Assembly (NCBI GenBank): GCA_019703815.1
Contig: AP023053.1
Coordinates: 46,995 to 110,994, forward strand
Origin: Thaumasiovibrio occultus
GTDB taxonomy: Bacteria; Pseudomonadota; Gammaproteobacteria; Enterobacterales; Vibrionaceae
DNA: 64,000 nt
Reading direction: 5' to 3'
Position numbers and translations under genes: made by a program
In this document: piece by piece, positions 6,664-42,756 of the stretch
Position numbering within the stretch: position 1 is the first letter of the stretch
Layout of the letters: the number at the start of each line of letters is the position of its first letter
Notes under the pieces: generated by a model
What the model saw: the letters and a program-made list of their open reading frames with translations, nothing else
Database searches by the model: none
What the model was told of the DNA's origin: nothing

Positions 6664-7299
6664 TTAACCGATAATCTTAAAATCGGTGGGGGTGAGATCA
6701 AAGCCAGTGCTAAGAGCGACACAACGCTCTGCGCGGTTATTGAGGATCTGCTCTTCGGCAGAAACCAAAAGGTATTCATCGTGATCAGCGTTCGCTTCAC
6801 GCGCATACAACATGATGAACTGATCGGTTTCGCTGGTCACCGTTTCGCTCGTCCACGTTTTTTCGGTCATCGCCACTGGTGCGGTGTTGTCCCAGCTTTT
6901 GTGGAAGGTTTGTCCATCCAATTCGCTGGTCGCTTGCACTACCTTGTGATTGAGCCATTCATCCCACGCGGTATTGCCATCGACTGGCAACGTTTCATAG
7001 AAGTAGAACAGCTTTACCTCAGCAACGTCAGCATCGTCCACGCCACCGTCTTGCAGCACTTGAATGAAGCCGTCGTCATCGGTGTAGAAACGGAGAATAC
7101 GGGTGTTGTTGTCCAATTGAACAAGGCCTACGGCTTTGATCAGTTGCGTTGTTGCCGCGCCTTCGATAGTTAGATCAGGCTCTAGCAGGCGCATTTTTAG
7201 CGCGTCGAGTTCAATCGCGCCGCCAAGCTTTAAACCCAGCACTTGGGGTGGTGGATCGAGTGGCGTTTCCGGTTTTTTCTTTTTAAACCAATCGAACAT
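6664..7299 (-). CDS. DUF2491 (YjfK-like) protein
   Basis: 211 aa acidic soluble protein in conserved position next to PspA-like gene. Confidence 0.6.
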   Translation of the reverse strand: MFDWFKKKKPETPLDPPPQVLGLKLGGAIELDALKMRLLEPDLTIEGAATTQLIKAVGLVQLDNNTRILRFYTDDDGFIQVLQDGGVDDADVAEVKLFYFYETLPVDGNTAWDEWLNHKVVQATSELDGQTFHKSWDNTAPVAMTEKTWTSETVTSETDQFIMLYAREANADHDEYLLVSAEEQILNNRAERCVALSTGFDLTPTDFKIIG

Positions 7300-7305
7300 G
7301 TGAGA

Positions 7306-8349
7306 TCACCATTGAATATTTGTGATTCGGTCATCGGCGATATAAAACAATCGCGCGCCTGATTCTACCTGAGTTTCCAACGTAGGGTTAAGTTGAGTTG
7401 GTCCGTTGGGATTGATCAAACCAATAATGGTCGCGTTGTAGTCAGATTTGAACTTGTCGAACAGATCGCGCACCAAGCAGCCGTCAAGATCCGTTGGGTA
7501 TTGCAGCGCATACTGGGTCATGCCCTTGTCAGTACTCAACAGTTCATGGTGCAGTGAGCTTGAGCCTGGATCGATTGCCGCTTTGGCCATCATTTCCGCT
7601 GACACAGAAGGAATACATTCGACGTTCGGACAGTGCTGCTTGGCTAATCCCACTAAAGCTTCATCATGGAAGTAAGCCAGAATATGGGCGTTAGTGTTAA
7701 GGCCGGAGCAATACAGCGTGGCAGATAAAGTGATGTCGTCTTCTGGGTTATCGACAAGGATAGTTTTCGCGTGGCGCAGATTGAGCTTTTCTGCGGTTGC
7801 TGGGTTGGTGAAGGTCTCGGTTCGCACAAACCCGATCTCACTTGGGAGAGGGTTCTCCATTTCCGGGCGAACGCACAACACAATCGATTGTGAGGGCTCT
7901 TTCCCGTGTTGGATCATGCGAATAAGGTCGAGAGTACGCTGGCCATTCCAGCCTAAAATAACAATGTGATCTTTCACATTTACCCCTCGCTTCCCTGTAA
8001 TGCCGGCGCGCCAGATGCTCGCAGCAAAGCCAGCAAGCTGACCAATCACAATTGCAAACAACCCTAAACCGGCGGGGATAACATATAGCAAGGTTACCCA
8101 TTTCCCCGCGACCGTTTCTGGTGACATATCACCGTAGCCGACGGTTGATGTGGTAACGATAAGAAAATAGATGAAGTCAGTGGCGGAAGCGTAGATCGCC
8201 TCTTCCCCCGCTGCCCAGTAACAAAGCCAAGCAAAAGCGGCGTAGGCCGCGAATAAGATCGCGAGACTACGCCCTGTAAGATTGACTAATTGTTGAATGA
8301 TCCACGGGCGGAAACGCGTCCACGCGTAGACCTCAGTCCACATTGCCAC
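7306..8349 (-). CDS. two-TM potassium channel with cytoplasmic RCK/TrkA-N domain
   Basis: Selectivity filter TTSTVGYGD between two TM helices. HIVILGWNGQ Rossmann-like RCK start. Confidence 0.8.
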   Translation of the reverse strand: MAMWTEVYAWTRFRPWIIQQLVNLTGRSLAILFAAYAAFAWLCYWAAGEEAIYASATDFIYFLIVTTSTVGYGDMSPETVAGKWVTLLYVIPAGLGLFAIVIGQLAGFAASIWRAGITGKRGVNVKDHIVILGWNGQRTLDLIRMIQHGKEPSQSIVLCVRPEMENPLPSEIGFVRTETFTNPATAEKLNLRHAKTILVDNPEDDITLSATLYCSGLNTNAHILAYFHDEALVGLAKQHCPNVECIPSVSAEMMAKAAIDPGSSSLHHELLSTDKGMTQYALQYPTDLDGCLVRDLFDKFKSDYNATIIGLINPNGPTQLNPTLETQVESGARLFYIADDRITNIQW

Positions 8350-8352
8350 CGG

Positions 8353-9039
8353 TTATTTGCCGAGGATGCGAGCCAGTTCGTCTTCGGCTGAAGTGCTACC
8401 TGAACCGGTAATACCTGCTTCAGCCAGTTTCTTATCCAAGCTGCTGCCGGTTGCTTCTTCATCGAGTTCAGCCGCTGCTGAAAGCTCAGCTGCGCGCAAT
8501 TCTTGACGGTTTTTGATGCGCTCTAGCGACTCGACTGCTGTCGACATCTTCGCATTGGCACCCACGCTGGTTGCAGAAACCGCCGCTTGCGCTTTTTGCA
8601 CTGCTTCGTTGGCTTTAACGACATCAACTTGTTGCTCTAGTTGACGCAGTTTGTCTTTCGCTTTGGCAACGTTGGTACGCATGCTGGTTTCTGATGATTG
8701 GAATTGATCCAAGTACGTTTGTTCAACGTCTTTTTCACCGCGTAGTTGGCTCACTTTCTGAGCACACTCTAGTGCCAACTCTTGCTGGCCTTTCTCCATC
8801 GCGTTACGCGCATGGCCTTCGTATTCTTCAATGCTGCTTTGTAGCGCATTGACTTTTTGCTCGGCGACTTTACGCTTTGCTACGATGCCAACCAAGGCTC
8901 TGTCAGAGCGCTCTAGTTCCGCTTTTGCTTCACGGATTTCTTGGTCAAGAATGCGAATTGCTTGGTTGTCAGCAATCGCTTCTGCCGCTTCGTTGGCACC
9001 GCCTTTTAGTGCGGTTACTAATTTAGTCCAGACACCCAT
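8353..9039 (-). CDS. PspA/IM30 family protein (YjfJ-like)
   Basis: 228 aa all-helical coiled-coil protein. Register and length match PspA/IM30. 3 nt after the channel gene stop. Confidence 0.8.
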   Translation of the reverse strand: MGVWTKLVTALKGGANEAAEAIADNQAIRILDQEIREAKAELERSDRALVGIVAKRKVAEQKVNALQSSIEEYEGHARNAMEKGQQELALECAQKVSQLRGEKDVEQTYLDQFQSSETSMRTNVAKAKDKLRQLEQQVDVVKANEAVQKAQAAVSATSVGANAKMSTAVESLERIKNRQELRAAELSAAAELDEEATGSSLDKKLAEAGITGSGSTSAEDELARILGK

Positions 9040-10190: not shown

Positions 10191-12575
10191 ATGAAACTAG
10201 GAATGAAAAGGACTGCCCTTGCTGTTGCTATGGCAACAACAATGACTGCAGGCATGGTTGCCACTGCACACGCTGCTCCGACACACGATAAGCAAGTGAT
10301 CGGTTACTTGACGCAGTGGGAAGCATGGAAAGGACCAGCTGAGGGTTTCTCAGTAAAAGGCGAAGCAACCCACCTCAATGTGGATATGAGCATCTACTCT
10401 ATCCTTAACTTCTCTTTTTTCGGGGTTGCTAAAGACGGTTCTATGCACTCTGGTGATTTGCGTAACAAGAGCATTTACCAACCGAATGCTGTGCAAGAGC
10501 CAGGTCCTCTACTTCACCCAGACGTATACTCTAGCTGGGACTTCCACATCCTTTGGGGTGAGCTAGAGTACATCCACCAGTTCCCTGGCACCGAACCATG
10601 GCAGGCAGAAGCACGCGCTAAAATTGAAGCAGCGGGCTTTGTAGAAGATGGTCGTGGCTGGAAACACGTACCGACTGGTCTAACTGGCCAAATGCCGATC
10701 CCATTGCCAAAAGCGGGCGGTGCTCCAGGTCTTATCGATCTTGCACACCAAAATGGCGTGAAAGTAATGGCATCGATCGGTGGTTGGTCTATGTCTAAGC
10801 ACTTCCCAGAAATGGCAGCGGATCCTGTTAAGAAAGAGCGTTTCTTGCAAGACGTTGACCGTTTGATGGCAATGGGCTTTGACGGTATTGACATCGACTG
10901 GGAATACCCAGGTTCAGGCGGTATGAACTTCACTGGTACGCCAGAAGATTACGCGAACTTTGAGCAGTTGATGGAAGATATCCGTAAGCGTATCGGTCCA
11001 GACAAACTGATCACTGCAGCATTTAAAGCAGTTCCAGCTGCGCTAGATGGCTTTAACTGGCCACGCCTAGTTGCATCAATGGACTACTTCAACATGATGA
11101 CTTACGACCTGAACGGTGGTTGGTCTAACGTTGCGGGTCACAACTCACCGTTGTACCCATACCCAGAAGAAGAGTTCCCAGGTCTGACGCTTGACGATCT
11201 ACGCAAGTGGATGATCGCTGAAGGTATCCCTTCTGAGAAAATCAACTTCGGTGCTGCGTTCTACGGCCGTGGTGTTCAAACGACTGAAGCAACAGCTTAC
11301 CTAGGCGCGCCAACGGACAAGCGTAACGTTAACTTCTCTGTTGATGGTCCTGCGACTTCTGCAGTTGACTTGACTAACTGGAGCAAGTTCGAAGGTCAGC
11401 CTAACTACAACTTCCTGACTAAGCAGCCAGGTTGGACGCACAGCTACGATGCAACTGCAGACGTACCATACGCGGTGAAAGATCAGTTCTTCTTGAGCTA
11501 CGATGATGAGCGTTCAATGGAGAGCAAGGCACAGTACATCGTTGATCACAACCTTGGTGGTATCATCGTATGGCAAGTGCACGGTGACATCGAGTGTAAA
11601 GGTGAGTTCATCCAGTACGGCACTAAGCTGTCTCAGTGTACTAACCTAAGCTCGCCACTGGCTGAGTCTATTGACCGTGTATTCTCTGCGAACACTGTTC
11701 CAAACAATGCACCAGTTCTGACTGTACCAGCAGCACAAACTGCAGCAGCAGGCGCAACCATCACCTTTACCGTTTCTGCAACTGACGCTGACGGCGATCT
11801 ACTGAAGATCACGGCAAGCGGCGCGCAAGTTACTGACAACGGTGACGGTACTGCACTGATCACTTACACTGCGCCAGTAACCGGTGTTGACGTACAAGAA
11901 ACTATCTCTGTAACGGTTTCTGACGGCCGCACTTCAGACATGGCGAACGTGGTAGTTAACGTAACTGGTAACGGTCTAAACACTGCACCAGTAGCGACGG
12001 CTCCAGCGTCTGTAGACGTAAACAGCGGCGCTGACGCGACTATCGTTGTTGAAGCTTCAGATGCAGACGGCGACGCGCTAACCATAACTGCATCGAAAGG
12101 TACTGTGACGCAAACGGCTTCAGGTGCGAACGTGGTTGTTACTGCAGCAGCGTCTGATGTTGATACAGCAGAAACTGTTGTTATCACAGTAGCTGACGGT
12201 ACTGACGCGGTTGAGCTAACTGTTACCTTGAACGTTAAAGGTGCAGCGAACGTGTCTACTTGGGATGCGTCTGCAGTTTACGTAGGCGGTGACAGTGTTG
12301 AGCACGCAGGTAAGACTTGGGTTGCTAAGTGGTGGACTCAAGGTAATGAGCCAGGCACTAACGCAGTTTGGGAAGACCAAAGCGGCGGTAAAGACAACAA
12401 CACAGGTAACGGCAACACTGGCGGCGATACTGGTAACACAGGTAGCAGCTGGGATGCAGGTAAAGTTTACACCGGTGGTGACACTGCGGTATTTAACGGT
12501 GTGACTTACAAAGCGAAGTGGTGGACTAAAGGTGATACTCCAGGAAACCAATACGGTCCTTGGGAAGCACTATAA
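10191..12575 (+). CDS. modular GH18 chitinase (signal peptide, GH18 catalytic domain, Ig-like repeats, two CBM5/12 chitin-binding domains)
   Basis: GGAG SD before ATG 10191. DGIDIDWEYPG catalytic DxxDxDxE motif. Repeated TA/DADGD Ig-like segments. Two C-terminal W...AKWWT.G..PG chitin-binding modules. Confidence 0.9.
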   Translation: MKLGMKRTALAVAMATTMTAGMVATAHAAPTHDKQVIGYLTQWEAWKGPAEGFSVKGEATHLNVDMSIYSILNFSFFGVAKDGSMHSGDLRNKSIYQPNAVQEPGPLLHPDVYSSWDFHILWGELEYIHQFPGTEPWQAEARAKIEAAGFVEDGRGWKHVPTGLTGQMPIPLPKAGGAPGLIDLAHQNGVKVMASIGGWSMSKHFPEMAADPVKKERFLQDVDRLMAMGFDGIDIDWEYPGSGGMNFTGTPEDYANFEQLMEDIRKRIGPDKLITAAFKAVPAALDGFNWPRLVASMDYFNMMTYDLNGGWSNVAGHNSPLYPYPEEEFPGLTLDDLRKWMIAEGIPSEKINFGAAFYGRGVQTTEATAYLGAPTDKRNVNFSVDGPATSAVDLTNWSKFEGQPNYNFLTKQPGWTHSYDATADVPYAVKDQFFLSYDDERSMESKAQYIVDHNLGGIIVWQVHGDIECKGEFIQYGTKLSQCTNLSSPLAESIDRVFSANTVPNNAPVLTVPAAQTAAAGATITFTVSATDADGDLLKITASGAQVTDNGDGTALITYTAPVTGVDVQETISVTVSDGRTSDMANVVVNVTGNGLNTAPVATAPASVDVNSGADATIVVEASDADGDALTITASKGTVTQTASGANVVVTAAASDVDTAETVVITVADGTDAVELTVTLNVKGAANVSTWDASAVYVGGDSVEHAGKTWVAKWWTQGNEPGTNAVWEDQSGGKDNNTGNGNTGGDTGNTGSSWDAGKVYTGGDTAVFNGVTYKAKWWTKGDTPGNQYGPWEAL

Positions 12576-27290: not shown

Positions 27291-28877
27291 CTACTGACGT
27301 TTAATGTCCTTCCATGCCAAGCCAAATTTGGCCAAATATTTTTGCAATCGGCTCGAATCGTTCGATGAAGACTTACTCAGCCGACTGACGTTAAACAGCT
27401 CGCGCCCGGCGCTGGCGAGGGTATTCGCGCTCTGACATACCGACAACACATAGTTAAGTTGTTGCTGATCGAAATTATCGAGCTGGCTCGGATCTGCGAG
27501 ATGATCTGCCAGCACGAGCGAGCTTTCACGGGGCGCTGTCCATGAGGCTTTGAGGCGTTCAATTTCGGCGTGCACGTCATCCAGCGCGATGCGCGATTGA
27601 TCGGCGAGCGTGCATAAACGGGTGATCGCCGCGCCTAAATCACGAAAGTTACCGAGCCACAACGCCTCCGGTGATTGGGCGAAACGCAAAAAGGCGGTTT
27701 TGGCTTCTTTGTTAAACTGCACTCGGTGGTTGTTCTTTTCCATAAAGCGCGTCAGCTCAAACTCGACGTTGGCGGGAATATCTTCGCGGCGATCACGCAG
27801 CGCAGGCAGTTGGTAGTGCCATAGGTTGATCCGCGCGAGTAAGTCTTCACGAAACTGACCTTGCGCCACCATCTGTTTTAAATCGCGATTGGTGCCGGCG
27901 ATCAGCTGGAAATCACTGCATAACGCTTTATCGCTGCCGACAGGATAAAACTGTTTATTTTCGATGGCATGGAGCAACATGGCTTGCTCTTCAAGGCCCA
28001 ACTCGCCTACTTCATCCAAAAATAATACGCCGTGATGGGCGGTGAGTAAAAATCCGTCCCGCGCTTTTAATGCGCCAGTAAACGCCCCCTTGGTATGACC
28101 AAACAGCGCGGCCATCGCATTTTCGCCGCGCAGTGTGGCACAGTTGACCGCAACAAATTCCCCTTTGACCATGGCGCGGCGCTTTTTAAGCTGGAAGATC
28201 CGCGAAGCGAGTTGCGATTTTCCCGCGCCCGTCGCGCCTGTGAGCAAAATCGGCTCACACGAGCGGATCGCCACTTTTTCGATTTCACTGATCAAGCGGT
28301 TGAACGCCGCATTTTGGGTGTTGATCCCGCCTTTTAAAAACGCGCTACCTTCTTGGTGTTCGATATCAAAACGGTTAGCTAGTTGATCGTATTTCGAGAG
28401 ATCAAGATCGATGATTTGTACTTGCCCCACCGAAGGGCTAGCGGCATCTCTATCTGGGGAGGACTGGATCAAGCGACCCGGGAAATGACGGCTTTCAGTC
28501 AGCAGATACGAGCAGATCTGCACCACGTGGGTGCCAGTCGTAATATGAAACAGGAGATCTTGCTGTTCGGGATCAAACGATTGCTCTTTGCACCAGTCGA
28601 ACAACTTGGCATAGACTTCGCCAAAATCCCATGGATCGATAAAGTGAGTGGTTTCCAGTATCACTTTGGTGTCAGGCGAGACGCTGTAGATGTCTTCCGT
28701 GATTTGGTTGGCAAGTCGACTGTGGCGCTCATCATGCAACAAATACAGCTCATTTATTTGTAAGTCTTCTTGGCTACATAAACTGACATTGGGTCGCCAT
28801 CGCGCCCAACGATTGCCGCGTTTGCCGACAAAATCGAGTTGCGTACCGAGTAAACTGACCGCTACCGTTTTCTTCAT
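27291..28877 (-). CDS. rtcR: sigma-54-dependent transcriptional activator RtcR (N-terminal CARF-like domain, AAA+ sigma54-interaction domain)
   Basis: Walker A LLTGATGAGKS. GAFTGA motif (HTKGAFTGA). RtcR-specific N-terminal domain. 528 aa. Confidence 0.85.
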   Translation of the reverse strand: MKKTVAVSLLGTQLDFVGKRGNRWARWRPNVSLCSQEDLQINELYLLHDERHSRLANQITEDIYSVSPDTKVILETTHFIDPWDFGEVYAKLFDWCKEQSFDPEQQDLLFHITTGTHVVQICSYLLTESRHFPGRLIQSSPDRDAASPSVGQVQIIDLDLSKYDQLANRFDIEHQEGSAFLKGGINTQNAAFNRLISEIEKVAIRSCEPILLTGATGAGKSQLASRIFQLKKRRAMVKGEFVAVNCATLRGENAMAALFGHTKGAFTGALKARDGFLLTAHHGVLFLDEVGELGLEEQAMLLHAIENKQFYPVGSDKALCSDFQLIAGTNRDLKQMVAQGQFREDLLARINLWHYQLPALRDRREDIPANVEFELTRFMEKNNHRVQFNKEAKTAFLRFAQSPEALWLGNFRDLGAAITRLCTLADQSRIALDDVHAEIERLKASWTAPRESSLVLADHLADPSQLDNFDQQQLNYVLSVCQSANTLASAGRELFNVSRLSKSSSNDSSRLQKYLAKFGLAWKDIKRQ

Positions 28878-29257
28878 TTCATCCTATCCATGTAGATAAA
28901 ACCGTATCGGATGAGCTTAAAGTGGTTGCGGTATAAACACCAGCGAGCAGAGATGAAAAGGGTAGAAAACAAAGCCGTATCAGTGAGCTAAAGTCAAACT
29001 CAGGGAGATGTGTCGCAGAGAATGCGTGTTGTGCGATCTTATAATGGCCCGCAGTTGTCGGTGGCAAGGAATGTTATATGTGGAGACGAATGGGCTAGGC
29101 GATTTGGCGATGGAAAAAGGGATGAGATGGCAGAACGTTTCGTGACCATCCTTATTATCCGGCGGATTTGGTGCATGCCGCTGTTTAGCTATCATTTTTG
29201 CCAACAAAACGCCGCTAAGATCAGCGGCGTTTTTTATGATGCGAAGTTGGGCGGTAG

Positions 29258-29782
29258 TTATATCCAACCGGCCGCCACCAGTATTTTCAGACCGGCGGTT
29301 TTCATTTGCAGTAACAGCACGATAAAGCCTATAACCGTCGCGACCTGTCGCATCCGCTGCAATATTTTAGGTGAGCTTGCCATTACATTAAGAATAACAA
29401 AGCCAATGATCGCGAATATGCCTGCGGCAATCTTCGAGGTTTCTAATGACGGACCAAACAGACCGCTATCGTGAAGAGAAGGAATGGAAAGATAAGCGAT
29501 GACAGCGGGATAAGCGAAGCGCACCAGAATATCATCTAAGGTCAGCGCGCTAGATAGCGTTACGAGAAGGAAGACAAAACACAGAACAAGAGCTAAAGGT
29601 ACGATCAGAAACGAGAGTATGCCAACGTCGCCTTCTAGCAGGAGAACCGCAAGCCAGGTCGTGGTTGCGAATAGCATATAATTAAGAATACCCAAACCTA
29701 AGTGGGTGGTCGTAAGGAATTTGGCGGTGTCATCAGCTGCGCGACTCATTATGAAGATAGTCCTATTGGGAATGAAAGCCAT
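29258..29782 (-). CDS. small multi-TM membrane protein of unknown function
   Basis: 4-5 hydrophobic helices. Start uncertain: the ORF opens with TTG at 29815, and in-frame ATGs lie at 29782 and 29749. Confidence 0.5.
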   Translation of the reverse strand: MAFIPNRTIFIMSRAADDTAKFLTTTHLGLGILNYMLFATTTWLAVLLLEGDVGILSFLIVPLALVLCFVFLLVTLSSALTLDDILVRFAYPAVIAYLSIPSLHDSGLFGPSLETSKIAAGIFAIIGFVILNVMASSPKILQRMRQVATVIGFIVLLLQMKTAGLKILVAAGWI

Positions 29783-29895
29783 AGGATTGTAATGTCTTAT
29801 TGATTTTTCGCTCAATATATTTTGTGTGAATTTACTGTCAAATCAGAGATCTATGACACATATTATGCGCTTTAGTATCTCAACGCGGTGGCTGC

Positions 29896-30693
29896 TTAAA
29901 ATACGCACGGGCTACTGCCATGGAAAGCTTGGCCTGTGGCGGGGTGAGTAAACTGGATCTCGCTGGCATGAAGCATCAGATGTTGCGCGTTACATTGAGC
30001 GGCGAGGTTGATAGATTCGGCCGTGTTATAAAGATCGCAACCTAAAATGGGGTGGCCAAATTCCAAGCTATGAATCCGCAGTTGATGGGTACGACCGGTT
30101 ATTGGGGTGTATTGCACCAATGTTCTTTTAGGGTTATCCAAACGGCGTATCACTTGGTAATGACTGACCGCATTTTTCCCTTCGGTGTGGCAAATTTTCA
30201 CACGGGGAAAGAGCGCTTTATCTTTCGCAATGGGAGCAGAGATCTGGCCGCTGTCTGCTTCAACCCAGCCAGCAAGCATAGCGAGATAACGCTTTTGCAC
30301 CGTTCGGGCTTGAAACTGCTTATTGAGGCTTGTCGATGCCGCGCTGTTGAGCGCCACCACCATAATGCCGGACGTCCATAGATCTAATCGATGCGGCAAT
30401 TTGGCATTCTCAAAGGCTCCAGTTGCTTCTTTATTTTCAGCTGCTTCGTTCGTTTCGTTTGTCGAAACGCTATTTGGCGAATCTGCGCGACCTGTTGCGT
30501 TCGTACATTGGCCGCGCACCAGACGGTAATGAACGGAATCCCAATTGAGTGGGTTTTTACCCGATAGGCTGAGCAAACCGCTCGGTTTATTGATCAGCAA
30601 GATATCGTCATCTTGATACAGGATCTCGACCTCTGCCAGACACTCAGGTGCGACAAAATTATCAACGATTTCACTAGAAACTGAGTTAGACAT
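29896..30693 (-). CDS. RluA-family pseudouridine synthase with an internal low-complexity insertion
   Basis: ILYQDDDILLINKPSGLLS...HRLDLWTSGIMVVA (catalytic Asp in HRLD). QLRIH and HA motifs. About 45 aa Ser/Thr/Asn/Glu-rich insert before HRLD. Longer ORF to 30798 possible. Confidence 0.75.
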   Translation of the reverse strand: MSNSVSSEIVDNFVAPECLAEVEILYQDDDILLINKPSGLLSLSGKNPLNWDSVHYRLVRGQCTNATGRADSPNSVSTNETNEAAENKEATGAFENAKLPHRLDLWTSGIMVVALNSAASTSLNKQFQARTVQKRYLAMLAGWVEADSGQISAPIAKDKALFPRVKICHTEGKNAVSHYQVIRRLDNPKRTLVQYTPITGRTHQLRIHSLEFGHPILGCDLYNTAESINLAAQCNAQHLMLHASEIQFTHPATGQAFHGSSPCVF

Positions 30694-30821
30694 AAAAAGT
30701 GCTTGATGGAAAAAGATCAGATGGAATACAGAGGGCCGAATTATAATGCTGCCGGCACCGCGAGCTAGCACTTTTTTATCAATACTCGGATTGGTCATCG
30801 CAGAGCATGTCGGTATGTTTT

Positions 30822-30870
30822 GCTTCCTGCTTCCTGCTTCCTGCTTCCTGCTTCCTGCTTCCTGCTTCCT
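30822..30870. repeat. heptanucleotide tandem repeat (GCTTCCT)x7
   Basis: Seven perfect contiguous copies, seen directly. Lies in the leader/promoter region of the RluA-like gene. Confidence 0.95.
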
Positions 30871-31052
30871 TAACCCATTTTATTTCGTTCTACATCGCTA
30901 CTCACTTTGATTGTCTGGATAAGTGTGTATCTATATGGATAGCTTGTTTGTGTTTCAGGTTTTCAGGCCACAACCTGTGATAAAAGCATCTGAGTTTTTA
31001 ATTCATTTAAAATCAACTACATAAAAAATATTTCTCCTCACTTAGCACAGGT

Positions 31053-31068
31053 TGGCACGCGACTTGGA
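31053..31068 (+). promoter_or_regulatory. candidate sigma-54 (-24/-12) promoter
   Basis: TGGCACG-CGAC-TTGGA: perfect -24 element and spacing, -12 element with TTGG instead of TTGC. Sits about 130 nt upstream of the tRNA-like element on the rtcBA strand. RtcR is a sigma54 activator. Confidence 0.45.
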
Positions 31069-31186
31069 ATAACTCAGTCGTGATTGATGGTGACTCTGGG
31101 TTCACCACGGTGCGCTAAGCGATGCGACTGCGTATGCCGTCTGTCACACGGTAAAGCCCTTTCACGGCTTGGGTTCAACTCCCAAA

Positions 31187-31259
31187 CATAAGATAGCTCA
31201 ATAGGTAGAGCGCCAAACGGCAACGTTGGATGTCGCGGGTTCGATTCCCGCTCTTAATG
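31187..31259 (+). ncRNA. tRNA-like element (degenerate tRNA or Y-RNA/YrlA-like RNA)
   Basis: Perfect D-arm GCTC-AATAGGTA-GAGC. Perfect T-arm GCGGG-TTCGATT-CCCGC. 5-nt variable loop ATGTC. Anticodon arm with 4 bp plus mismatch and loop CGGCAAC (G at position 33). Acceptor stem pairs only 5 of 7. No CCA. Confidence 0.5.
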
Positions 31260-31421
31260 ACCATATATGTGCAACACGCCAACAACGTGAGTTGCCAATG
31301 GATGAACAGCGCCCCTGATTTAGGGGAAGTGGCAAGCATACGCTCCCTGCTTCCTACACCTTAGACGGCCCTGCTCACTACGCAATTTTACTTTGTTGGT
31401 TATCAACACGAGGAAGTGACG

Positions 31422-32579
31422 ATGAAAAAATATCAAAAAAATATCACGGTAACGGAAGGCCAACGCGCGTTGCTATTTAAAAACGAACAATTTCAAACAG
31501 TGTTGCCAGTCGGGCAGCACAAATTTTGGGACTTTTCCGATAAGGTGCGGTTTAAGCTGATCAGCCTCAATACGGTTTTTGTGACCGATGCAGATGTGAT
31601 CCGCTTATACCGCGAAGGGGCACTGCAAGACGACATCTTGCACTGGAAACTGTCGCCAACCGAAACCGGTTTGCTCTATTTCAACGATGTGTTGCTGGGG
31701 ATTGTCGCGCCGAACGAGCACGTTTATGTCTGGCAAGCGGCGGGGGAATATCGCTTAGAAAAAGTCGACTTAGAGAGTGATGTTGAAGTAAAAGGCGCAA
31801 TGCTGCGCGATATTGAACGCTCGAATAAGAACACCGCGAGCAAGTTGATCCACAGTGCCAGCACTCATGCGATCCAACCGGTGAAATCTATCCGTGTGGA
31901 TAAACAACAAGTAGCGTTGCTGTTCTTTAACGGTCGTTATCAAACCGCATTGCAACCGGGCAATTACGGTTACTGGCAGTTTATGCACGATATTGATGTC
32001 CGCCAATACGATTTGCGTACTCGGACGTTTGAGGTCACCGGCCAAGAGATCTTAAGCAAAGATCGGGTGAGCCTGCGGATCAACCTGAGCGCTAACATTC
32101 GCATTAGCGATCCCATGTTGGCTGCGACCACGGTGGAGAGTGTGGATGATTTCATCTACCAGCGTTTGCAGCTGGCTTTGCGTGAAGCGGTCGGCACCAA
32201 AACCTTGGATGATATCTTGCAAGACAAGCTCTACATCAACCACACCGTGCGCGAGTTGGTAGCGGAGCAGTTGGCACGTGTTGGCGTGGTGCTAGAAAGT
32301 GTCGGGGTGAAAGACATCATCTTGCCGGGCGAAATGAAAGCGATTTTGAATCAGGTGGTGGAAGCGCAGAAAGCCGCAGAAGCGAACGTGATCAAGCGCC
32401 GTGAAGAAACCGCTGCCACCCGCAGCTTGCACAATACCGCCAAAGTGATGGAGAACAACCCGACGCTAATGCGCTTGAAAGAGTTGGAAGCGCTAGAGAA
32501 GGTGTCGGAGAAGATCAGCAACTTGACGGTGTATGGCGGCTTGGAAGGCTTGATGCAAGGTGTGGTAAAGCTGACTTAA
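31422..32579 (+). CDS. cytosolic SPFH/band-7 (stomatin/slipin-like) domain protein
   Basis: C-terminal two thirds match SPFH core and coiled-coil (ILPGEMKAILNQVVEAQKAAEANVIKRREETAA). No TM segment. N-terminal beta-rich domain of about 150 aa. GAGGAAG SD. Confidence 0.75.
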   Translation: MKKYQKNITVTEGQRALLFKNEQFQTVLPVGQHKFWDFSDKVRFKLISLNTVFVTDADVIRLYREGALQDDILHWKLSPTETGLLYFNDVLLGIVAPNEHVYVWQAAGEYRLEKVDLESDVEVKGAMLRDIERSNKNTASKLIHSASTHAIQPVKSIRVDKQQVALLFFNGRYQTALQPGNYGYWQFMHDIDVRQYDLRTRTFEVTGQEILSKDRVSLRINLSANIRISDPMLAATTVESVDDFIYQRLQLALREAVGTKTLDDILQDKLYINHTVRELVAEQLARVGVVLESVGVKDIILPGEMKAILNQVVEAQKAAEANVIKRREETAATRSLHNTAKVMENNPTLMRLKELEALEKVSEKISNLTVYGGLEGLMQGVVKLT

Positions 32580-32733
32580 TCGGTCTAAAAACCTAGCGGT
32601 AATAAACCTAGCGGTAAGAAACGCAGAGCAAATAAACCGAAAGCAAATCAACTTGAAGCAAGAGAGCCGCCTGGTAGGTTTAGGCGAGGCGGCTCAGCTA
32701 TCCAAAATAGAATCAAAAATGAAGGAGCATAGT

Positions 32734-33960
32734 ATGTGTCAGAAATTTAATCTTTATGAATCAGAAGGCAAGGCCGCCATCAAAGCATGGACCCAAGGGG
32801 TGCCTTTTGAAGACGAGGCGCGTGCCCAGCTTGATAACATTGCCGCGATGCCAATTATTCACTCCCATATTGCGGTGATGCCGGATGTGCATTTAGGCAA
32901 AGGGGCGACGATTGGTAGCGTTATTCCATCGGTGGATGCGGTGATCCCCGCTGCTGTCGGGGTCGATATTGGTTGCGGTATGGTAGCGGCGAAAACCAGC
33001 CTGCGCGCGAAAGATCTGCCGGATAACTTGCGCGGTGTGCGCTCGGCGTTTGAAGCGGCGGTGCCGCACGGACGAACGGTGTCGCGCCACCACAAGCGTG
33101 ATAAAGGCGCGTGGGGAAATATTCCCGCGTTAGTGGCGCAGGAGTGGCTAACACTGCAAGCGCGTTTTGAACGCATTTGTGAAAAACACCCAACGATCAA
33201 AAAGTCCAACAACGTCAACCATTTGGGTACCATGGGAACCGGCAACCATTTTCTTGAGCTGTGTATTGATGAGAACGATGCAGTGTGGATCATGCTTCAT
33301 TCCGGTAGCCGCGGCGTGGGGAATTTGATTGGCACCTACTTTATAGAGCTGGCCAAAAAAGAGATGGAGCGTCATCAAATTCAGTTACCGGATGTGAATT
33401 TGGCCTACCTAAAAGAAGGTAGCGAGTATTTTGATGACTACGTTGAAGCGGTGGAGTGGGCGCAAGATTTTGCCCGTAAAAACCGCGAGATCATGATGCT
33501 TAATGCGATTGCCGCGCTGCGTACTGCGCTTGGGGTGAATTTCAGTGCCAGCGAAATGGCGGTGAACTGCCACCATAACTACATTTCCCGCGAGCATCAC
33601 TTTGGTAAGGACTGTTATGTCACCCGTAAAGGGGCGGTGCGCGCGCAGCAGGGTGAGATGGGGATCATTCCAAGCAACATGGGAGAGCGTTCGTTTATCG
33701 TGCGTGGCTTGGGAAATCCTGACAGCTTTAACAGTTGCAGCCACGGTGCGGGGCGTGTGATGTCGCGAACCAAAGCCAAAAAGGTCTACACCATCAAAGA
33801 TCAAGAAGCGATGACCCAAGGGGTCGAGTGCCGCAAAGACAAAGAGGTGATTGATGAGATCCCTGCGGCATACAAAAACATCGACGATGTGATGGCGGCG
33901 CAAAGCGATTTAGTGGAAGTGGTGCATACCCTAAAACAAGTGGTGTGTGTGAAAGGCTAA
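32734..33960 (+). CDS. rtcB: RNA-splicing ligase RtcB
   Basis: AAGGAG SD before ATG 32734. Near-identical blocks to RtcB (HIAVMPDVHLGKG, GTGNHFLE, HSGSRG, CHHNY, SHGAGR). Confidence 0.9.
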   Translation: MCQKFNLYESEGKAAIKAWTQGVPFEDEARAQLDNIAAMPIIHSHIAVMPDVHLGKGATIGSVIPSVDAVIPAAVGVDIGCGMVAAKTSLRAKDLPDNLRGVRSAFEAAVPHGRTVSRHHKRDKGAWGNIPALVAQEWLTLQARFERICEKHPTIKKSNNVNHLGTMGTGNHFLELCIDENDAVWIMLHSGSRGVGNLIGTYFIELAKKEMERHQIQLPDVNLAYLKEGSEYFDDYVEAVEWAQDFARKNREIMMLNAIAALRTALGVNFSASEMAVNCHHNYISREHHFGKDCYVTRKGAVRAQQGEMGIIPSNMGERSFIVRGLGNPDSFNSCSHGAGRVMSRTKAKKVYTIKDQEAMTQGVECRKDKEVIDEIPAAYKNIDDVMAAQSDLVEVVHTLKQVVCVKG

Positions 33961-34034
33961 AACAAAACAGCCAGACGCAAAAAAACAGTTACCAAAAGCC
34001 AGATATAAAAAAACAGCGAATAGGAAAGCAACGG

Positions 34035-35093
34035 ATGCGATATATCCAAATCGACGGCAGCATGGGCGAAGGCGGCGGGCAGGTACTGCGTACGTCGTTA
34101 ACGTTATCGATGCTGTATCAAATGCCGATTGAAATTAGCAATATCCGCGCAGGACGCAATAAGCCGGGCCTGCTGCGCCAGCACTTAACGTGCGTGTTGG
34201 CGGCGGCAGAGATTTCATCTGCGCAGGTGGAAGGCGCCGAGCTTGGCGCTACTCGGTTAAGGTTTGCGCCGGGCAGCGTCAAAGCGGGGGAGTATCACTT
34301 TGCGGTGGGCTCGGCAGGCAGCACCGCATTGGTATGCCAAACGGTTTTACTGCCATTAGCGCTTACCGGGCAAGGTTCGCGCGTAATCTTCGAAGGTGGC
34401 ACCCACAATATGGCAGCCCCTTCGTTAACCTTTTTAACACAGAGCTTTCTGCCGCTACTGGCACAGCAAGGGTTGAACACTAAGGTCACGCTTGATCGGG
34501 TGGGGTTTTACCCAGCGGGTGGCGGGCGTTGGCAGTTAGATATCGATGGTGTCGCATCACTCGCGCCGCTGCGTGTTGCGCCTGAGAAAGAAACCGAAAA
34601 TTCTACGCTGACGGCTGTTGCGATGATCAGCAAGTTGGCAAACAAGATAGGTGAGCGGGAAATTACTCAGCTAGAGAAATCCCTGCGCCGCTCCCCGCTT
34701 GGTGATGTGAACGTTAGCGGACGGGTTGAGTCCGTTGAGTCTATCGGGCCGGGTAACATGTTATTGCTGACAGCAAAGAGCTACCACCATGCGCATGTCT
34801 TTGAAATGGCGGGAAGTTACGGCGTAAAAGCGGAAGCAGTTGCCAAGCGAGTTGCGGGGCGTTATTGCGAGTTTTATGAAGCAGAGGCAGAGGTTGAACA
34901 TTACTTGGCCGATCAACTATTGCTGCCTTTGCTGGTGGGCGGCGCTGGCGCGTTTATCACTTCTGTGCCGAGTGGCCATTTGCAAACCAATGTGGCGCTC
35001 ATTCGCCAACTGACCGGAAAACCGCTGACACTAACACCACATGGTGAAAGCCGCTTCGGCGCACCACGCTGGCAGGTGGCGCTCAGTCGTTAG
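34035..35093 (+). CDS. rtcA: RNA 3'-terminal phosphate cyclase RtcA
   Basis: IDGSMGEGGGQVLRTSLTLS and IRAGRNKPGLLRQHL blocks. Catalytic His region. AGGAAA SD. Confidence 0.85.
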   Translation: MRYIQIDGSMGEGGGQVLRTSLTLSMLYQMPIEISNIRAGRNKPGLLRQHLTCVLAAAEISSAQVEGAELGATRLRFAPGSVKAGEYHFAVGSAGSTALVCQTVLLPLALTGQGSRVIFEGGTHNMAAPSLTFLTQSFLPLLAQQGLNTKVTLDRVGFYPAGGGRWQLDIDGVASLAPLRVAPEKETENSTLTAVAMISKLANKIGEREITQLEKSLRRSPLGDVNVSGRVESVESIGPGNMLLLTAKSYHHAHVFEMAGSYGVKAEAVAKRVAGRYCEFYEAEAEVEHYLADQLLLPLLVGGAGAFITSVPSGHLQTNVALIRQLTGKPLTLTPHGESRFGAPRWQVALSR

Positions 35094-35164
35094 CACTCAA
35101 CACTGGGAGCGCTGCAATTGGCCGGTGGTAATTGGCATCTGATAACTTGCCCGAGTTAACTAGA

Positions 35165-35213
35165 CTGTTGTCTGTTGTCTGTTGTCTGTTGTCTGTTGTC
35201 TGTTGTCTGTTGC
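35165..35213. repeat. heptanucleotide tandem repeat (CTGTTGT)x6 plus one imperfect copy
   Basis: Seen directly. Located 70 nt downstream of the rtcA stop. Confidence 0.95.
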
Positions 35214-35385
35214 TTTGGCGAATATTGCGTGCCGTTGATATCTTGGTGGTTGTCGCTTTCTCATAGAGTGAGAAATCCTCCGTCCGCTTTATGATCAAGA
35301 TGATATTCCTTTGCTTTATTGATGTTTAGCTAAAATAGGCTTTCGTAGAATACAGCCAGTTTTTCTATGGAAGTGATGTATATCT

Positions 35386-42675: not shown

Positions 42676-42756
42676 TGCTTTCTTCTTTCTTCTTTCTTCT
42701 TTCTTCTTTCTCGTTTTCTCGTTTTCTCGTTTTCTCGTTTTCTCGTTTTCTCGCTT
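42676..42756. repeat. compound tandem repeat (TTTCTTC)x5 followed by (TCGTTTTC)x5
   Basis: Seen directly in the divergent intergenic region between the RidA-like and xseA-like genes. Confidence 0.95.

Follow-up and report, generated by a model that had tools for sequence, protein, structure and literature searches.

A Thaumasiovibrio occultus locus as a probable member of the RtcR/sigma54-controlled RtcB operons with a soluble Band-7 protein and a tRNA-like RNA

Described RtcB operons and the gene content of the locus

[quoted passage not shown] 2018, bioRxiv 10.1101/312249). According to the latter source, the b7a-tRNA was 'not validated experimentally' as of 2018, and our literature search for a later experimental paper on it found none. 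In Salmonella, RtcR responds to tRNA fragments (PMC7790460).

We analyzed a 64-kb stretch of DNA from Thaumasiovibrio occultus (hereafter the window) and compared it with 80 related genome loci and three others. In the window, rtcR is followed by genes for a membrane protein and an RluA-family enzyme, then by a sigma54-type promoter and a tRNA-like element, and lastly by a Band-7/SPFH gene without transmembrane (TM) segments, rtcB and rtcA. All features listed in an earlier sequence-only reading of this DNA were found, with coordinates that match or are off by a few bases. The locus is quite probably the T. occultus member of the RtcR/sigma54-controlled RtcB operons that combine a soluble Band-7/SPFH protein with a cognate tRNA-like RNA (the b7a-tRNA system). 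Its regulatory sites and protein-coding genes, apart from those discussed further below, are:

27291..28877, minus strand: rtcR, sigma54-dependent activator with a CARF-like RtcR N-terminal domain (Pfam RtcR 9e-76, Sigma54_activat 9e-48, AAA_lid_14)
28885..28898: candidate RtcR site TATCCATGTAGATA, a TATC-N6-GATA palindrome adjoining the rtcR start (motif conservation)
30928..30941: second candidate RtcR site TATCTATATGGATA (TATC-N6-GATA, ~120 bp upstream of the -24 GG)
31053..31068, plus strand: sigma54-type promoter TGGCACGCGACTTGGA (core TGGCACGCGACTTGG, 31053-31067), with -24 GG and -12 region TTGG (pattern and conservation)
31422..32579, plus strand: soluble Band-7/SPFH ('slipin') protein, 385 aa (Pfam Band_7 6e-31; ORF 31416-32579)
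32734..33960, plus strand: rtcB, RNA ligase, 408 aa from the likely ATG 32734 (Pfam RtcB 6e-125; ORF opens at 32653)
34035..35093, plus strand: rtcA, RNA 3'-phosphate cyclase, ~352 aa from the likely ATG 34035 (Pfam RTC 1e-64 and RTC_insert; ORF opens at 33945)

The window rtcR shows 50-72% identity to its counterparts next to Band-7 in related loci, and RtcB shares 73-80% identity with the RtcB proteins beside Band-7 in relatives, having the same length of 408 aa in the loci L081 (Photobacterium japonica) and L082. The rtcA gene is present in most close relatives and absent in P. japonica. The Band-7 gene has a ribosome-binding site (RBS), GAGGA, at 31410-31414, and its product possesses no TM segment (maximum 19-residue hydropathy 1.29), as had been read from the sequence upstream of rtcB. 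The protein consists of two extra N-terminal beta modules (copies of the one that opens SPFH), the SPFH core and a long C-terminal helix; by sequence and closest fold matches it falls with stomatin, HflK and prohibitin, and its family is large and mostly annotated as 'slipin'.

In 36 of 46 loci, a TATC-N6-GATA palindrome lies no more than 110 nt from the start of rtcR (background, 0.07 per kb), and the distance of the second candidate site from the promoter fits the enhancer-binding-protein sites of relatives (110-150 bp). This conservation suggests that RtcR may bind at such sites. The sigma54 pattern by itself is no rarity (3 matches vs 1.07 expected in the window); the predicted promoter on the rtcBA strand is nevertheless conserved in position, TGGCAC-N5-TTG occurring at the equivalent place in ~30 related loci, ~60 nt upstream of a conserved 5' RNA domain. 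The -12 element, which is TTGG and not TTGC, counts against our reading.

A survey of the kind proposed in the sequence-only reading located RtcB within 7 kb of Band-7 in 62 of 80 loci, and tRNA-like modules, recognized by a T-loop motif at most 520 nt upstream of Band-7, in 73 of 82 sources. These counts support the functional analogy with Ro/Y-RNA modules that had been drawn there. By comparison with the Salmonella rsr-yrlBA-rtcBA operon, the view that the tRNA-like RNA, the soluble SPFH protein, RtcB and RtcA would form one unit under RtcR/sigma54 is supported. The locus had been taken for an uncharacterised variant, with SPFH in place of Rsr and a tRNA mimic in place of Y RNA; as far as Wang et al. 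relate it, however, Band-7, b7a-tRNA and RtcB were already published as a Ro and Y RNA counterpart in 2016, and the substitution itself was predicted then.

The structured leader RNA

The tRNA-like element is embedded in a leader of ~330 nt:

31068..31152, plus strand: 5' leader RNA domain, a three-way junction (covariance model R2)
31150..31186, plus strand: 'mini' tRNA-like module (sequence, fold)
31187..31263, plus strand: full tRNA-like module of the b7a-tRNA type (Rfam tRNA at 31189-31256, minimum-energy cloverleaf)
31275..31404, plus strand: 3' leader RNA domain, a 'rod' made of a single extended, irregular hairpin with six helices and ~41 bp (RNAalifold, covariance model R1)

The full module matches Rfam tRNA with 44.7 bits (gathering score, 29; model positions 3-68) and comprises a 7-bp acceptor stem with one bulge, a D arm, a T arm and an encoded ACCA. 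In place of the anticodon arm it has CCAA-A-CG/GCAA/CG-UUGG, with a GNRA tetraloop as the cap. ARAGORN made no call on the element, so that its earlier description as degenerate is fair. Rfam YrlA scored 19.5 bits on it, below the gathering score of 69. In related loci, ARAGORN reports one to three tRNA-like genes with erratic anticodons, on the same strand and directly upstream of Band-7. The window module is atypical for this family (ARAGORN negative, tetraloop, bulged acceptor stem), which could be decay and counts against our reading. The mini module includes GGUAAAG, a hairpin at 31155-31169 with the 7-nt loop CUUUCAC, and a T-arm-like hairpin at 31170-31184 with the loop UUCAACU; the same YGGUAAAG-hairpin-T-arm unit recurs at distant loci (e.g. 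L074, L041, L038, L069). The tRNA-like modules and the 5' domain accompany Band-7 even where Band-7 is located downstream of rtcBA.

The 5' domain is formed by P1 (~31079-31089 with 31138-31150), the P2 hairpin (31090-31093 with 31102-31105), P3 (GUGCGC 31110-31115 with GCGUAU 31130-31135) and P4 (31119-31120 with 31124-31125, 3-nt loop). Model R2 scores 58.4 bits in the window and matches in 46 of 83 sources. Paired cells amount to 96.6%, covariation is 0.505 vs 0.188 in shuffled alignments (slid controls, at most 0.15), and cognate P1 duplexes have a mean of -9.2 kcal vs -6.2 for non-cognate ones.

The rod is closed by an outer helix (CCAACAA 31279-31285 with UUGUUGG 31393-31399) and carries a conserved apical element, GGCAAGC-loop-GCUCCC, at 31331-31347. 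RNAalifold predicts 41 pairs with compensatory changes in 36 of them; 89.6% of cells are paired vs 63.8% after shuffling, and covariation is 0.70 vs 0.22 (slid controls, at most 0.14). Model R1 scores 81.4 bits in the window and matched 32 sources, 13 of them outside the seed, while the window sequence alone folds at -48.3 kcal (z = -4.5). Neither domain has a match in Rfam 15, and we found no published description of covarying 5' and 3' domains around tRNA-like modules, the 2016 prediction being known to us through Wang et al. 2018.

The leader could instead be mainly cis-regulatory (a riboswitch, T-box-like or autoregulatory), controlling the translation or stability of the Band-7-rtcBA mRNA rather than acting in trans as an RNA partner; such a leader might sense tRNA status or bind the Band-7 protein. 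In favour of this proposal, T-box leaders recognize the tRNA elbow, the rod invariably lies in cis directly before Band-7 and ends only ~10 nt ahead of the Band-7 RBS, and a comparable long rod occupies the equivalent place in distant betaproteobacterial loci. However, the consensus structure includes no terminator/antiterminator or RBS-sequestering alternative, and the RBS lies outside the rod. The modules, moreover, look autonomous and tRNA-shaped, and often occur two or three in tandem with full acceptor stems, thus resembling more closely processed RNAs such as Salmonella YrlA/YrlB. We consider a mainly cis-regulatory role unlikely.

The segment between rtcR and the promoter

The separation of rtcR from the operon was previously seen as a non-canonical trait of the system. 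The intervening region and the two repeat arrays contain the following features:

28909..31051: lineage-specific 2.1-kb segment that interrupts the intergenic region between rtcR and the promoter (blastn vs P. japonica L081)
29258..29815, minus strand: gene for a hydrophobic 185-aa multi-TM membrane protein, start uncertain (ORF, hydropathy segments)
29896..30693, minus strand: RluA-family pseudouridine synthase gene (Pfam PseudoU_synth_2 6e-28; ORF spans 29896-30798)
30821..30870: (TGCTTCC)x7.1 perfect tandem repeat, intergenic (TRF and perfect-repeat scan)
35165..35212: (CTGTTGT)x6.9 perfect tandem repeat, 3' of rtcA (TRF and perfect-repeat scan)

Homology to P. japonica, the closest relative, covers 27300-28908 and resumes at 31052, with 120 bp between these points in P. 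japonica vs 2.1 kb in the window. Among the 80 genome loci and three others, almost all close relatives have rtcR and Band7-rtcB(-rtcA) directly side by side in divergent orientation, and the segment is absent from the other loci. Homologues of the RluA-family and membrane-protein genes were found in none of the 80 genome loci searched, and no such genes were called at the P. japonica or V. neptunius loci. The odd gap is best read from these alignments as a local 2-kb gene insertion that left a candidate RtcR site beside the promoter.

Both genes are present on the rtcR strand as previously noted, the synthase with its insert, but the comparison speaks against their proposed membership in the module. 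The likely start of the RluA-family gene at 30693 gives 265 aa, matching the database entry, whereas its orthologues across Vibrionaceae have 248 aa (70-74% identity); the insert of ~18 aa coincides with an 18-nt tandem duplication at 30420-30456. The orthologues of T. subtropicus and V. kasasachensis are located away from rtc, among unrelated neighbours. The membrane protein has no Pfam match, and a promoter/terminator scan assigned its gene a sigma70-like promoter of its own (29841-29814) and a terminator-like hairpin (29226-29210).

Both heptamer arrays are perfect as described, but they bracket the leader-Band7-rtcBA operon and not the whole block, the first falling inside the rtcR-rtcB gap, with the RluA gene on one side and the promoter on the other. 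Their units are unrelated, and two further perfect 7- and 8-nt arrays occur at 42678-42753, making four in the 64-kb window vs six in 1.15 Mb of related loci. Since arrays with different 7-8-nt units are common across the window, we place the repeats outside the system and attach no meaning to the bracket. The two genes are placed outside it because their 2.1-kb segment occurs in no other locus; together with the repeats they appear to be lineage-specific sequence, the genes being 'passengers'.

Targets of RluA-type enzymes are tRNA position 32 and 23S rRNA. One might propose that in this species the synthase and the membrane protein have been recruited to serve in the rtc module, for instance by pseudouridylation of the tRNA-like RNA, which would make the locus a truly new variant. 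The position of the genes between rtcR and the operon, the lineage-specific insert and the tRNA substrates of such enzymes agree with this proposal. Nevertheless, it is very improbable: the pair accompanies no other related locus, the RluA orthologue is conserved in Vibrionaceae and elsewhere sits among unrelated genes, the RluA-family gene is on the strand opposite to the operon, the membrane-protein gene has its own transcription signals, and the window tRNA-like RNA, lacking an anticodon loop, also lacks position 32.

Finally, although the missing ARAGORN call, the imperfect acceptor stem without an anticodon loop and the rearranged surroundings relative to relatives would suit an ordinary tRNA gene that has decayed, or a relic of integration at a tRNA, lying incidentally beside rtc, this explanation deserves almost no credence and is largely refuted by the comparative data, as homologous modules precede Band-7 at the same place and on the same strand in Gamma- and Betaproteobacteria and further groups, lie inside the sigma54 transcription unit, are flanked by two co-conserved structured domains and show freely changing anticodons with nearly invariant D and T arms among close relatives, and no integrase or recombinase gene was seen in the ORF list or the eight Pfam-scanned ORFs.

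Proposed working and comparison with known systems

In the b7a-tRNA reading that we prefer, RtcR would sense RNA damage via its CARF-like domain, as shown for Salmonella RtcR (PMC7790460). It would then bind the TATC-N6-GATA sites and activate the sigma54 promoter at 31053, as their conservation suggests. The order of elements predicts a single transcript with the ~330-nt structured leader followed by Band-7, rtcB and rtcA. Processing of the leader probably yields a stable RNA, which may associate with the soluble SPFH protein assembled as an oligomeric ring or cage, and this assembly could serve as a scaffold or decoy for RtcB and RtcA on broken tRNAs and rRNAs, in the manner of Rsr-YrlA.

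The eukaryotic vault particle combines the major vault protein, vault RNA and TEP1, which has a TROVE domain. A link of the Band-7 system to vaults is an analogy, drawn partly from general background; by sequence and closest fold matches, the window protein differs in being nearest to stomatin, HflK and prohibitin, and it has only two extra repeats.

The rtc locus of Escherichia coli (Genschik et al. 1998) likewise has the sigma54 activator rtcR, a sigma54 promoter and rtcB and rtcA in one operon, but no Band-7 gene or tRNA-like leader, and its rtcR is immediately divergent. In Pseudomonas aeruginosa PA4581-PA4585 (rtcR, PA4582 = PaFlo8, rtcB, PA4584, rtcA), an SPFH gene also lies within the rtc operon, divergent from rtcR; there the protein alone has been studied, and the upstream RNA goes unmentioned in the PaFlo8 papers. 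Deletion of the P. aeruginosa Band-7 gene had no phenotype in the assays used, which counts against our reading.

The Salmonella enterica rsr-yrlB-yrlA-rtcB-rtcA operon (Chen et al. 2013/2014; Hughes et al. 2020, PMC7790460) is likewise under RtcR/sigma54 control. Its transcription unit also begins with a gene for a putative RNA-binding scaffold protein and encodes, ahead of rtcBA, noncoding RNAs that contain a tRNA-like domain. In contrast, the window has no Rsr (TROVE) gene, and its RNA is a linear cloverleaf-type mimic, whereas YrlA has a permuted fold with a Ro-binding stem; in the related locus L003, Rfam YrlA reached at most 33 bits, below its gathering score of 69.

The b7a-tRNA system, as known through Wang et al., has a soluble Band-7 gene by rtcB with a tRNA-like gene directly upstream, proposed as a Ro and Y RNA counterpart. 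The window differs from it in its degenerate, ARAGORN-negative module with a GNRA-capped stem for the anticodon loop, in the displacement of rtcR by the 2.1-kb insertion, and, relative to the 2016 description as relayed there, in the conserved 5' and 3' structured domains of the leader. The synteny of this system is reproduced in more than 80 related loci.

Gene content of the locus and a local insertion

The gene content of the 27.3-35.2 kb region was established by ORF calling and Pfam searches, with eight ORFs scanned between 26.6 and 36 kb. Likely starts (30693, 31422, 32734 and 34035) were assigned because of the orthologue lengths (265, 385 and 408 aa) and the points at which the Pfam matches begin.

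Genes of the rtc locus
27291-28877, minus strand: rtcR (Pfam RtcR, 9e-76, and Sigma54_activat, 9e-48)
29258-29815, minus strand: membrane-protein gene, a 185-aa hydrophobic ORF without a Pfam match
29896-30798 (ORF; likely start 30693), minus strand: RluA-family pseudouridine synthase (PseudoU_synth_2, 6e-28)
31416-32579 (ORF; likely start 31422), plus strand: Band_7/SPFH gene (Pfam Band_7, 6e-31)
32653-33960 (ORF; likely start 32734), plus strand: rtcB (Pfam RtcB, 6e-125)
33945-35093 (ORF; likely start 34035), plus strand: rtcA (Pfam RTC, 1e-64, and RTC_insert)

The rtcR product possesses both the RtcR (CARF-like) N-terminal domain and the sigma54-interaction AAA+ domain, and the RtcB ligase and RtcA cyclase genes form a single cluster on one strand. 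The Band-7 gene ends 154 nt before the likely rtcB start, and the adjacency of these two genes is also found in relatives. The intervening spacer is filled at 32589-32652 by two imperfect 15-nt tandem repeats, AAACCTAGCGGTAAG (x2.3) and AAACCCAAAGCAAAT (x2.3), and is ~100 nt longer in the window than in Photobacterium japonica. No TROVE domain, and hence no Rsr (Ro60/TROVE) gene, was detected by Pfam in the eight ORFs. Every feature listed by the sequence-only reading was recovered by ORF calling, Pfam, Tandem Repeats Finder, Rfam and inspection of the sigma54 element.

In blastn comparison with P. japonica, the closest relative among the matches listed (Band-7 protein 89% identical), homology covers rtcR plus 31 bp (27300-28908) and resumes exactly at the sigma54 promoter (31052 onward); the window holds 2,143 bp at this place versus 120 bp in P. 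japonica. On this alignment, the 'non-canonical' spacing of rtcR is a local insertion. The rtcR start (28877) is separated from the promoter (31053) by 2.2 kb with two unrelated genes, and the immediate divergence present in relatives is absent from the window. Such divergence is a feature of arrangement that is dispensable for function in trans.

The sequence-only reading had described both inserted genes within a non-canonical rtc locus bracketed by tandem repeats. Neither the RluA-family synthase nor the 185-aa membrane protein has a tblastn homolog in any of the loci compared. Orthologs of the synthase (70-74% identical, 248-255 aa) occur throughout Vibrionaceae; in T. subtropicus and V. 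kasasachensis they have unrelated neighbors and no rtc genes nearby, and the alignment between the window and the T. subtropicus region is limited to the gene itself. The 'low-complexity insert' of the window protein amounts to ~18 extra residues and coincides with an 18-nt tandem duplication at 30420-30456, while direct reading of the translation finds the HRLD catalytic motif intact. The membrane-protein gene comes with its own expression signals, a strong sigma70-like promoter at 29841-29814 and a terminator-like hairpin at 29226-29210. We therefore rejected both genes as components of the rtc system, given their absence from all related loci and the lack of linkage of the RluA gene in the sister species.

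Perfect heptamer arrays (Tandem Repeats Finder)
30821-30870: (TGCTTCC)x7.1
35165-35212: (CTGTTGT)x6.9

The two arrays were likewise rejected as boundaries of a mobile element or cassette, since their units are unrelated and the window contains more arrays elsewhere; no direct or inverted repeats that match between the two module ends were found. Two adjacent perfect arrays, (CTTTCTT)x4.9 and (TTTCTCGT)x5.9, occupy 42678-42753. Overall, four perfect arrays of 7-8-nt units occur in the 64 kb of the window versus six in 1.15 Mb of related loci, ~12 times more per base. The arrays thus look like a property of this region or genome and not a module boundary.

Conserved arrangement and a candidate RtcR operator

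The window Band-7 protein is 100% identical to a T. occultus 'slipin family protein', and its best 120 relatives (52-89% identity) are found in Photobacterium, Vibrio, Pseudoalteromonas, Alteromonas, Shewanella, Colwellia and many metagenomes. Scanning a single genome per species gave at least 557 Band-7 relatives among the 600 pattern-matching stretches listed; among IMG/VR viral contigs, we found no relative in phages. The window proteins were compared by tblastn with 80 loci from the matches listed, P. japonica (L081) and Vibrio neptunius (L082, L083).

Nearly all close relatives (L001-L032) have rtcR and Band7-rtcB(-rtcA) in direct divergence, the two start codons being 530-690 bp apart, while in more distant loci, such as L031, L033, L038-L042 and L058, Band-7 lies downstream of rtcR-rtcB-rtcA. 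RtcB is encoded within 7 kb of Band-7 in 62 of the 80 loci kept among the matches listed, and 73 of 82 sources have a T-loop motif in the 520 nt preceding Band-7. These counts bear out the co-occurrence of rtcB, the SPFH gene and a tRNA-like element that the sequence-only reading had proposed to survey.

Several relatives carry additional genes. A second, distant RtcB paralog (28-44% identical) is encoded a few kb downstream of Band7-rtcBA in some Pseudoalteromonas and Colwellia loci (L001, 13510-14595; L010, 12149-13249; L003, 14839-15153, minus strand). The P. japonica locus is without rtcA and has a 197-aa ORF with no Pfam hit after rtcB (10585-11178). In V. neptunius (L082/L083, 3813-10985), an RlaP nucleotidyltransferase gene follows Band7-rtcB, and the other strand carries an AAA_33 kinase paired with an RNA_ligase as well as a second RtcB accompanied by an RF-1-like (PrfH-type) gene; this is a compact island combining several RNA-repair systems. 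Six loci from betaproteobacterial metagenome-assembled genomes (L043, L055, L060, L062, L037, L076) have 5-14 ordinary-looking tRNA genes followed by a tRNA-like module and Band-7 (match at about 7001), and the genes after Band-7 in such loci include an AAA ATPase (L055, L056) and an EF-G paralog (L060). This arrangement is reminiscent of Anabaena, whose repressor TrcR is common to a slipin gene, rtcB and an operon of 26 tRNAs (PMC10272220).

Promoter and candidate operator sites
31053: sigma54-type promoter TGGCACGCGACTTGG, upstream of the Band7-rtcBA operon, with TTGG rather than TTGC as the -12 element
28885-28898: TATC-N6-GATA copy adjoining rtcR
30928-30941: TATC-N6-GATA copy ~120 bp upstream of the -24 GG

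The bare sigma54 pattern matches the window three times versus 1.07 expected, which is not significant alone; the promoter is credible because it is kept at a fixed position in about 30 related loci. Of 46 loci, 36 have a TATC-N6-GATA palindrome at most 110 nt from the rtcR start, the background frequency being 0.07 per kb. In relatives a few bases separate the palindrome from the rtcR start codon, the sigma54 promoter lies 110-150 bp downstream of it, and a weaker second copy often follows. We propose this palindrome as a candidate RtcR operator, which RtcR would bind; a literature search turned up no published RtcR operator for comparison. With the copy at 30928-30941, the displaced promoter retains a predicted site at the usual distance, and regulation is probably intact despite the insertion. 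Further copies of the palindrome occur inside the Band-7 coding sequence (31889-31902) and at 7749-7762.

The leader RNA and the Band-7 protein

The leader, spanning ~340 nt from the promoter to the Band-7 ribosome-binding site, is about 80% identical to that of P. japonica, and its modular plan is the same in all close relatives.

Predicted units of the leader
31068-31152: 5' domain, with hairpin P2, conserved helix P3 (GUGCGC/GCGUAU) and distal hairpin P4 (3-nt loop), closed by the long helix P1
31150-31186: 'mini' module just upstream of the full module, with GGUAAAG, a hairpin closing a 7-nt loop and a second hairpin resembling a T arm
31187-31263, plus strand: full tRNA-like module, folding as a cloverleaf
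31275-31404: 3' domain (rod), one long irregular hairpin

The only above-threshold Rfam match in the whole window is a tRNA at 31189-31256 on the plus strand (44.7 bits versus a gathering score of 29), and ARAGORN called no tRNA gene anywhere in the window. This discrepancy is explained by the structure of the module, a cloverleaf with a tetraloop-capped arm: the acceptor stem has 7 bp and one bulged A, the D and T arms are normal, and the 'anticodon arm' is a longer stem under a 4-nt GCAA (GNRA) tetraloop. The module and the Band-7 gene directly downstream of it share a strand, and equivalent modules occur in related loci; in most of these, ARAGORN calls one to three tRNA-like genes on the Band-7 strand, 200-450 nt ahead of Band-7. 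Their anticodons vary between close relatives and include stop anticodons and 6- or 8-nt loops. The modules of relatives such as L003 look canonical (61 bits, called by ARAGORN). The mini-module unit also occurs in distant loci, there downstream of the full module. An encoded ACCA follows the last tRNA-like module in the window (31260-31263) and in several Pseudoalteromonas and Aliikangiella loci (L015, L019, L021-L025, L027, L030); in most other relatives an A plus non-CCA is found.

Two known RNA classes were considered for the module and rejected. The YrlA/bacterial Y RNA model (RF02553, gathering score 69 bits) gives 19.5 bits (E 0.66) in the window and no more than 33 bits in L003, and these weak hits arise because a T arm precedes the D arm of the next module, not from family membership. 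A canonical decoding tRNA does not fit the negative ARAGORN result, the 4-nt GCAA loop and the freely varying anticodons of relatives.

Helices P2-P4 of the 5' domain were recovered by RNAalifold with compensatory changes in 7 of 13 pairs, and the covariance model found the domain in 46 of 83 sources. Helix P1 escaped MAFFT plus RNAalifold on account of its length variation and was assessed by duplex energies, which average -9.2 kcal/mol for cognate 5'/3' flanks versus -6.2 kcal/mol (sd 2.4) for non-cognate ones. Because the 5' domain is also present where Band-7 follows rtcBA, it travels with the tRNA-like/Band-7 unit and not with the promoter. For the 3' domain, RNAalifold predicted 41 pairs, 36 of them with compensatory changes, and the covariance model matched 32 sources, including 13 outside its seed. 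In alignments fitted to the covariance models, which favor the modeled structures of both domains, 96.6% of cells pair in the 5' domain, with covariation of 0.505 versus 0.188 after shuffling (reached in 0 of 500 shuffles; slid partners at most 0.15), and 89.6% pair in the 3' domain versus 63.8% after shuffling, with covariation of 0.70 versus 0.22 (0 of 500; slid partners at most 0.14). At the position of the 3' domain, betaproteobacterial loci have a rod that is longer and GC-rich (38 predicted pairs, of which 24 show compensatory changes).

Folded by itself, the window sequence forms the same 3' rod (-48.3 kcal/mol, z = -4.5), whereas single-sequence folding of the 5' domain, mini and tRNA-like modules is not significant (z from -0.4 to -1.6); the evidence for the predicted structures of these three units is entirely comparative. 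Neither flanking domain has an Rfam 15 match, even at E up to 10. The embedding of the tRNA-like RNA between two further covarying domains could be new.

In the AlphaFold model of the Band-7 protein (pLDDT 77), three beta modules (residues 7-50, 74-118 and 156-199) precede the SPFH core and a long helix, i.e. an SPFH fold followed by a coiled-coil helix, as in the stomatin-prohibitin-flotillin-HflK/C superfamily. Residues 1-70 and 71-150 are diverged copies of the SPFH-opening segment (z = 11 and 5 versus shuffles). An N-terminal membrane anchor, either a transmembrane segment or a hairpin, was not found, the maximal 19-residue hydropathy being 1.29 and the N-terminus consisting of beta repeats. 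Model and sequence thus point to a soluble SPFH protein whose N-terminal modules are duplicated. Band-7 proteins of ~540 aa in the Pseudoalteromonas luteoviolacea group (L019, L021-L025, L027, L030; match 7001-8590) apparently have one more copy of the N-terminal beta module; therefore repeat number varies within the family, as in repeat-built shells.

Proposed working and comparison with known systems

The comparison demonstrates the gene content and its conserved synteny, a promoter and a palindrome that are both conserved, three conserved RNA structure units upstream of Band-7 and a soluble SPFH fold, and a possible working of the system can be built on these. The sigma54 activator RtcR responds through its CARF-like domain to fragments of damaged tRNA (Hughes et al. 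2020, PMC7790460), and such fragments would activate it at this locus. The leader would then be co-transcribed with the operon and processed in the manner of YrlA/YrlB; the processed RNA may bind an oligomeric Band-7 assembly, and this assembly may be a scaffold, a chaperone or a decoy for the substrates of RtcB. In the main competing reading, the leader works mostly in cis, on the expression of Band-7-rtcBA. It occupies the stretch between the promoter and the Band-7 gene; a simple scan of the plus strand found nothing convincing as an attenuator in the leader or as a terminator after rtcA.

[quoted passage not shown] From 5' to 3', this RNA would comprise a three-way junction built around an invariant GGUGC...GUAUNCC core, up to three (at least one) tRNA-shaped or 'elbow' modules, and a ~41-bp rod with a conserved apical GGCAAGC-loop-GCUCCC; it would co-evolve with the soluble, repeat-bearing SPFH protein, and the pair would form a vault-like RNP ring or cage that recruits or shields broken tRNAs for RtcB and RtcA. 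Were this vault-like reading true, the betaproteobacterial pairs beside arrays of 5-14 tRNA genes, an EF-G paralog or AAA ATPases would suggest that the module is a general back-up for translation machinery that has been damaged.

In itself the locus adds little, as the system is present in well-studied bacteria such as P. aeruginosa and the peculiarities of the window are a local insertion and repeats. Its value is as a pointer to the role of the Band-7 protein and the tRNA-like RNA in RtcB repair. For that question, the comparison supplies a defined promoter and a candidate RtcR operator as handles, three RNA domains with exact boundaries and structures backed by covariation, two of which have no Rfam 15 entry, and the evidence for a soluble SPFH protein with duplicated N-terminal modules. 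The 2016 abstract of Burroughs and Aravind reportedly names 'Rot/TROVE and SPFH/Band-7 modules' with 'YRNAs and a novel tRNA-like molecule' as scaffolding cofactors.

In P. aeruginosa, the same gene is PA4582, in the PA4582-rtcB-PA4584-rtcA operon divergent from rtcR. It is also called PaFlo8 and is described as 'embedded within the rtc locus'; no phenotype followed from its deletion in assays of growth, virulence, motility, biofilm and oxidative stress. Literature searches found no experiments on b7a-tRNA expression or its association with Band-7. The association of Band-7 and a tRNA-like RNA with RtcB is a prediction of Burroughs and Aravind (2016), as summarized by Wang et al. (2018, bioRxiv 10.1101/312249), and the locus is a further instance of this computationally predicted system, catalogued in 2016. 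The interpretation given by the sequence-only reading is thus partly supported: its analogy, with the SPFH protein in place of Rsr and the tRNA mimic in place of Y RNA, was right in substance, while its claim of novelty and the involvement of the RluA and membrane proteins and of the repeats were not supported.

According to the summary of the 2016 work, the b7a-tRNA 'strongly resembles an authentic tRNA'; the window module has acceptor, D and T arms, its anticodon arm is a GNRA-capped stem, and ARAGORN does not call it. A particle of the RNA and the protein, if one forms, would stand as a bacterial counterpart to the Ro/Y-RNA and vault-type RNPs, and a rare SPFH assembly acting on RNA, not membranes.
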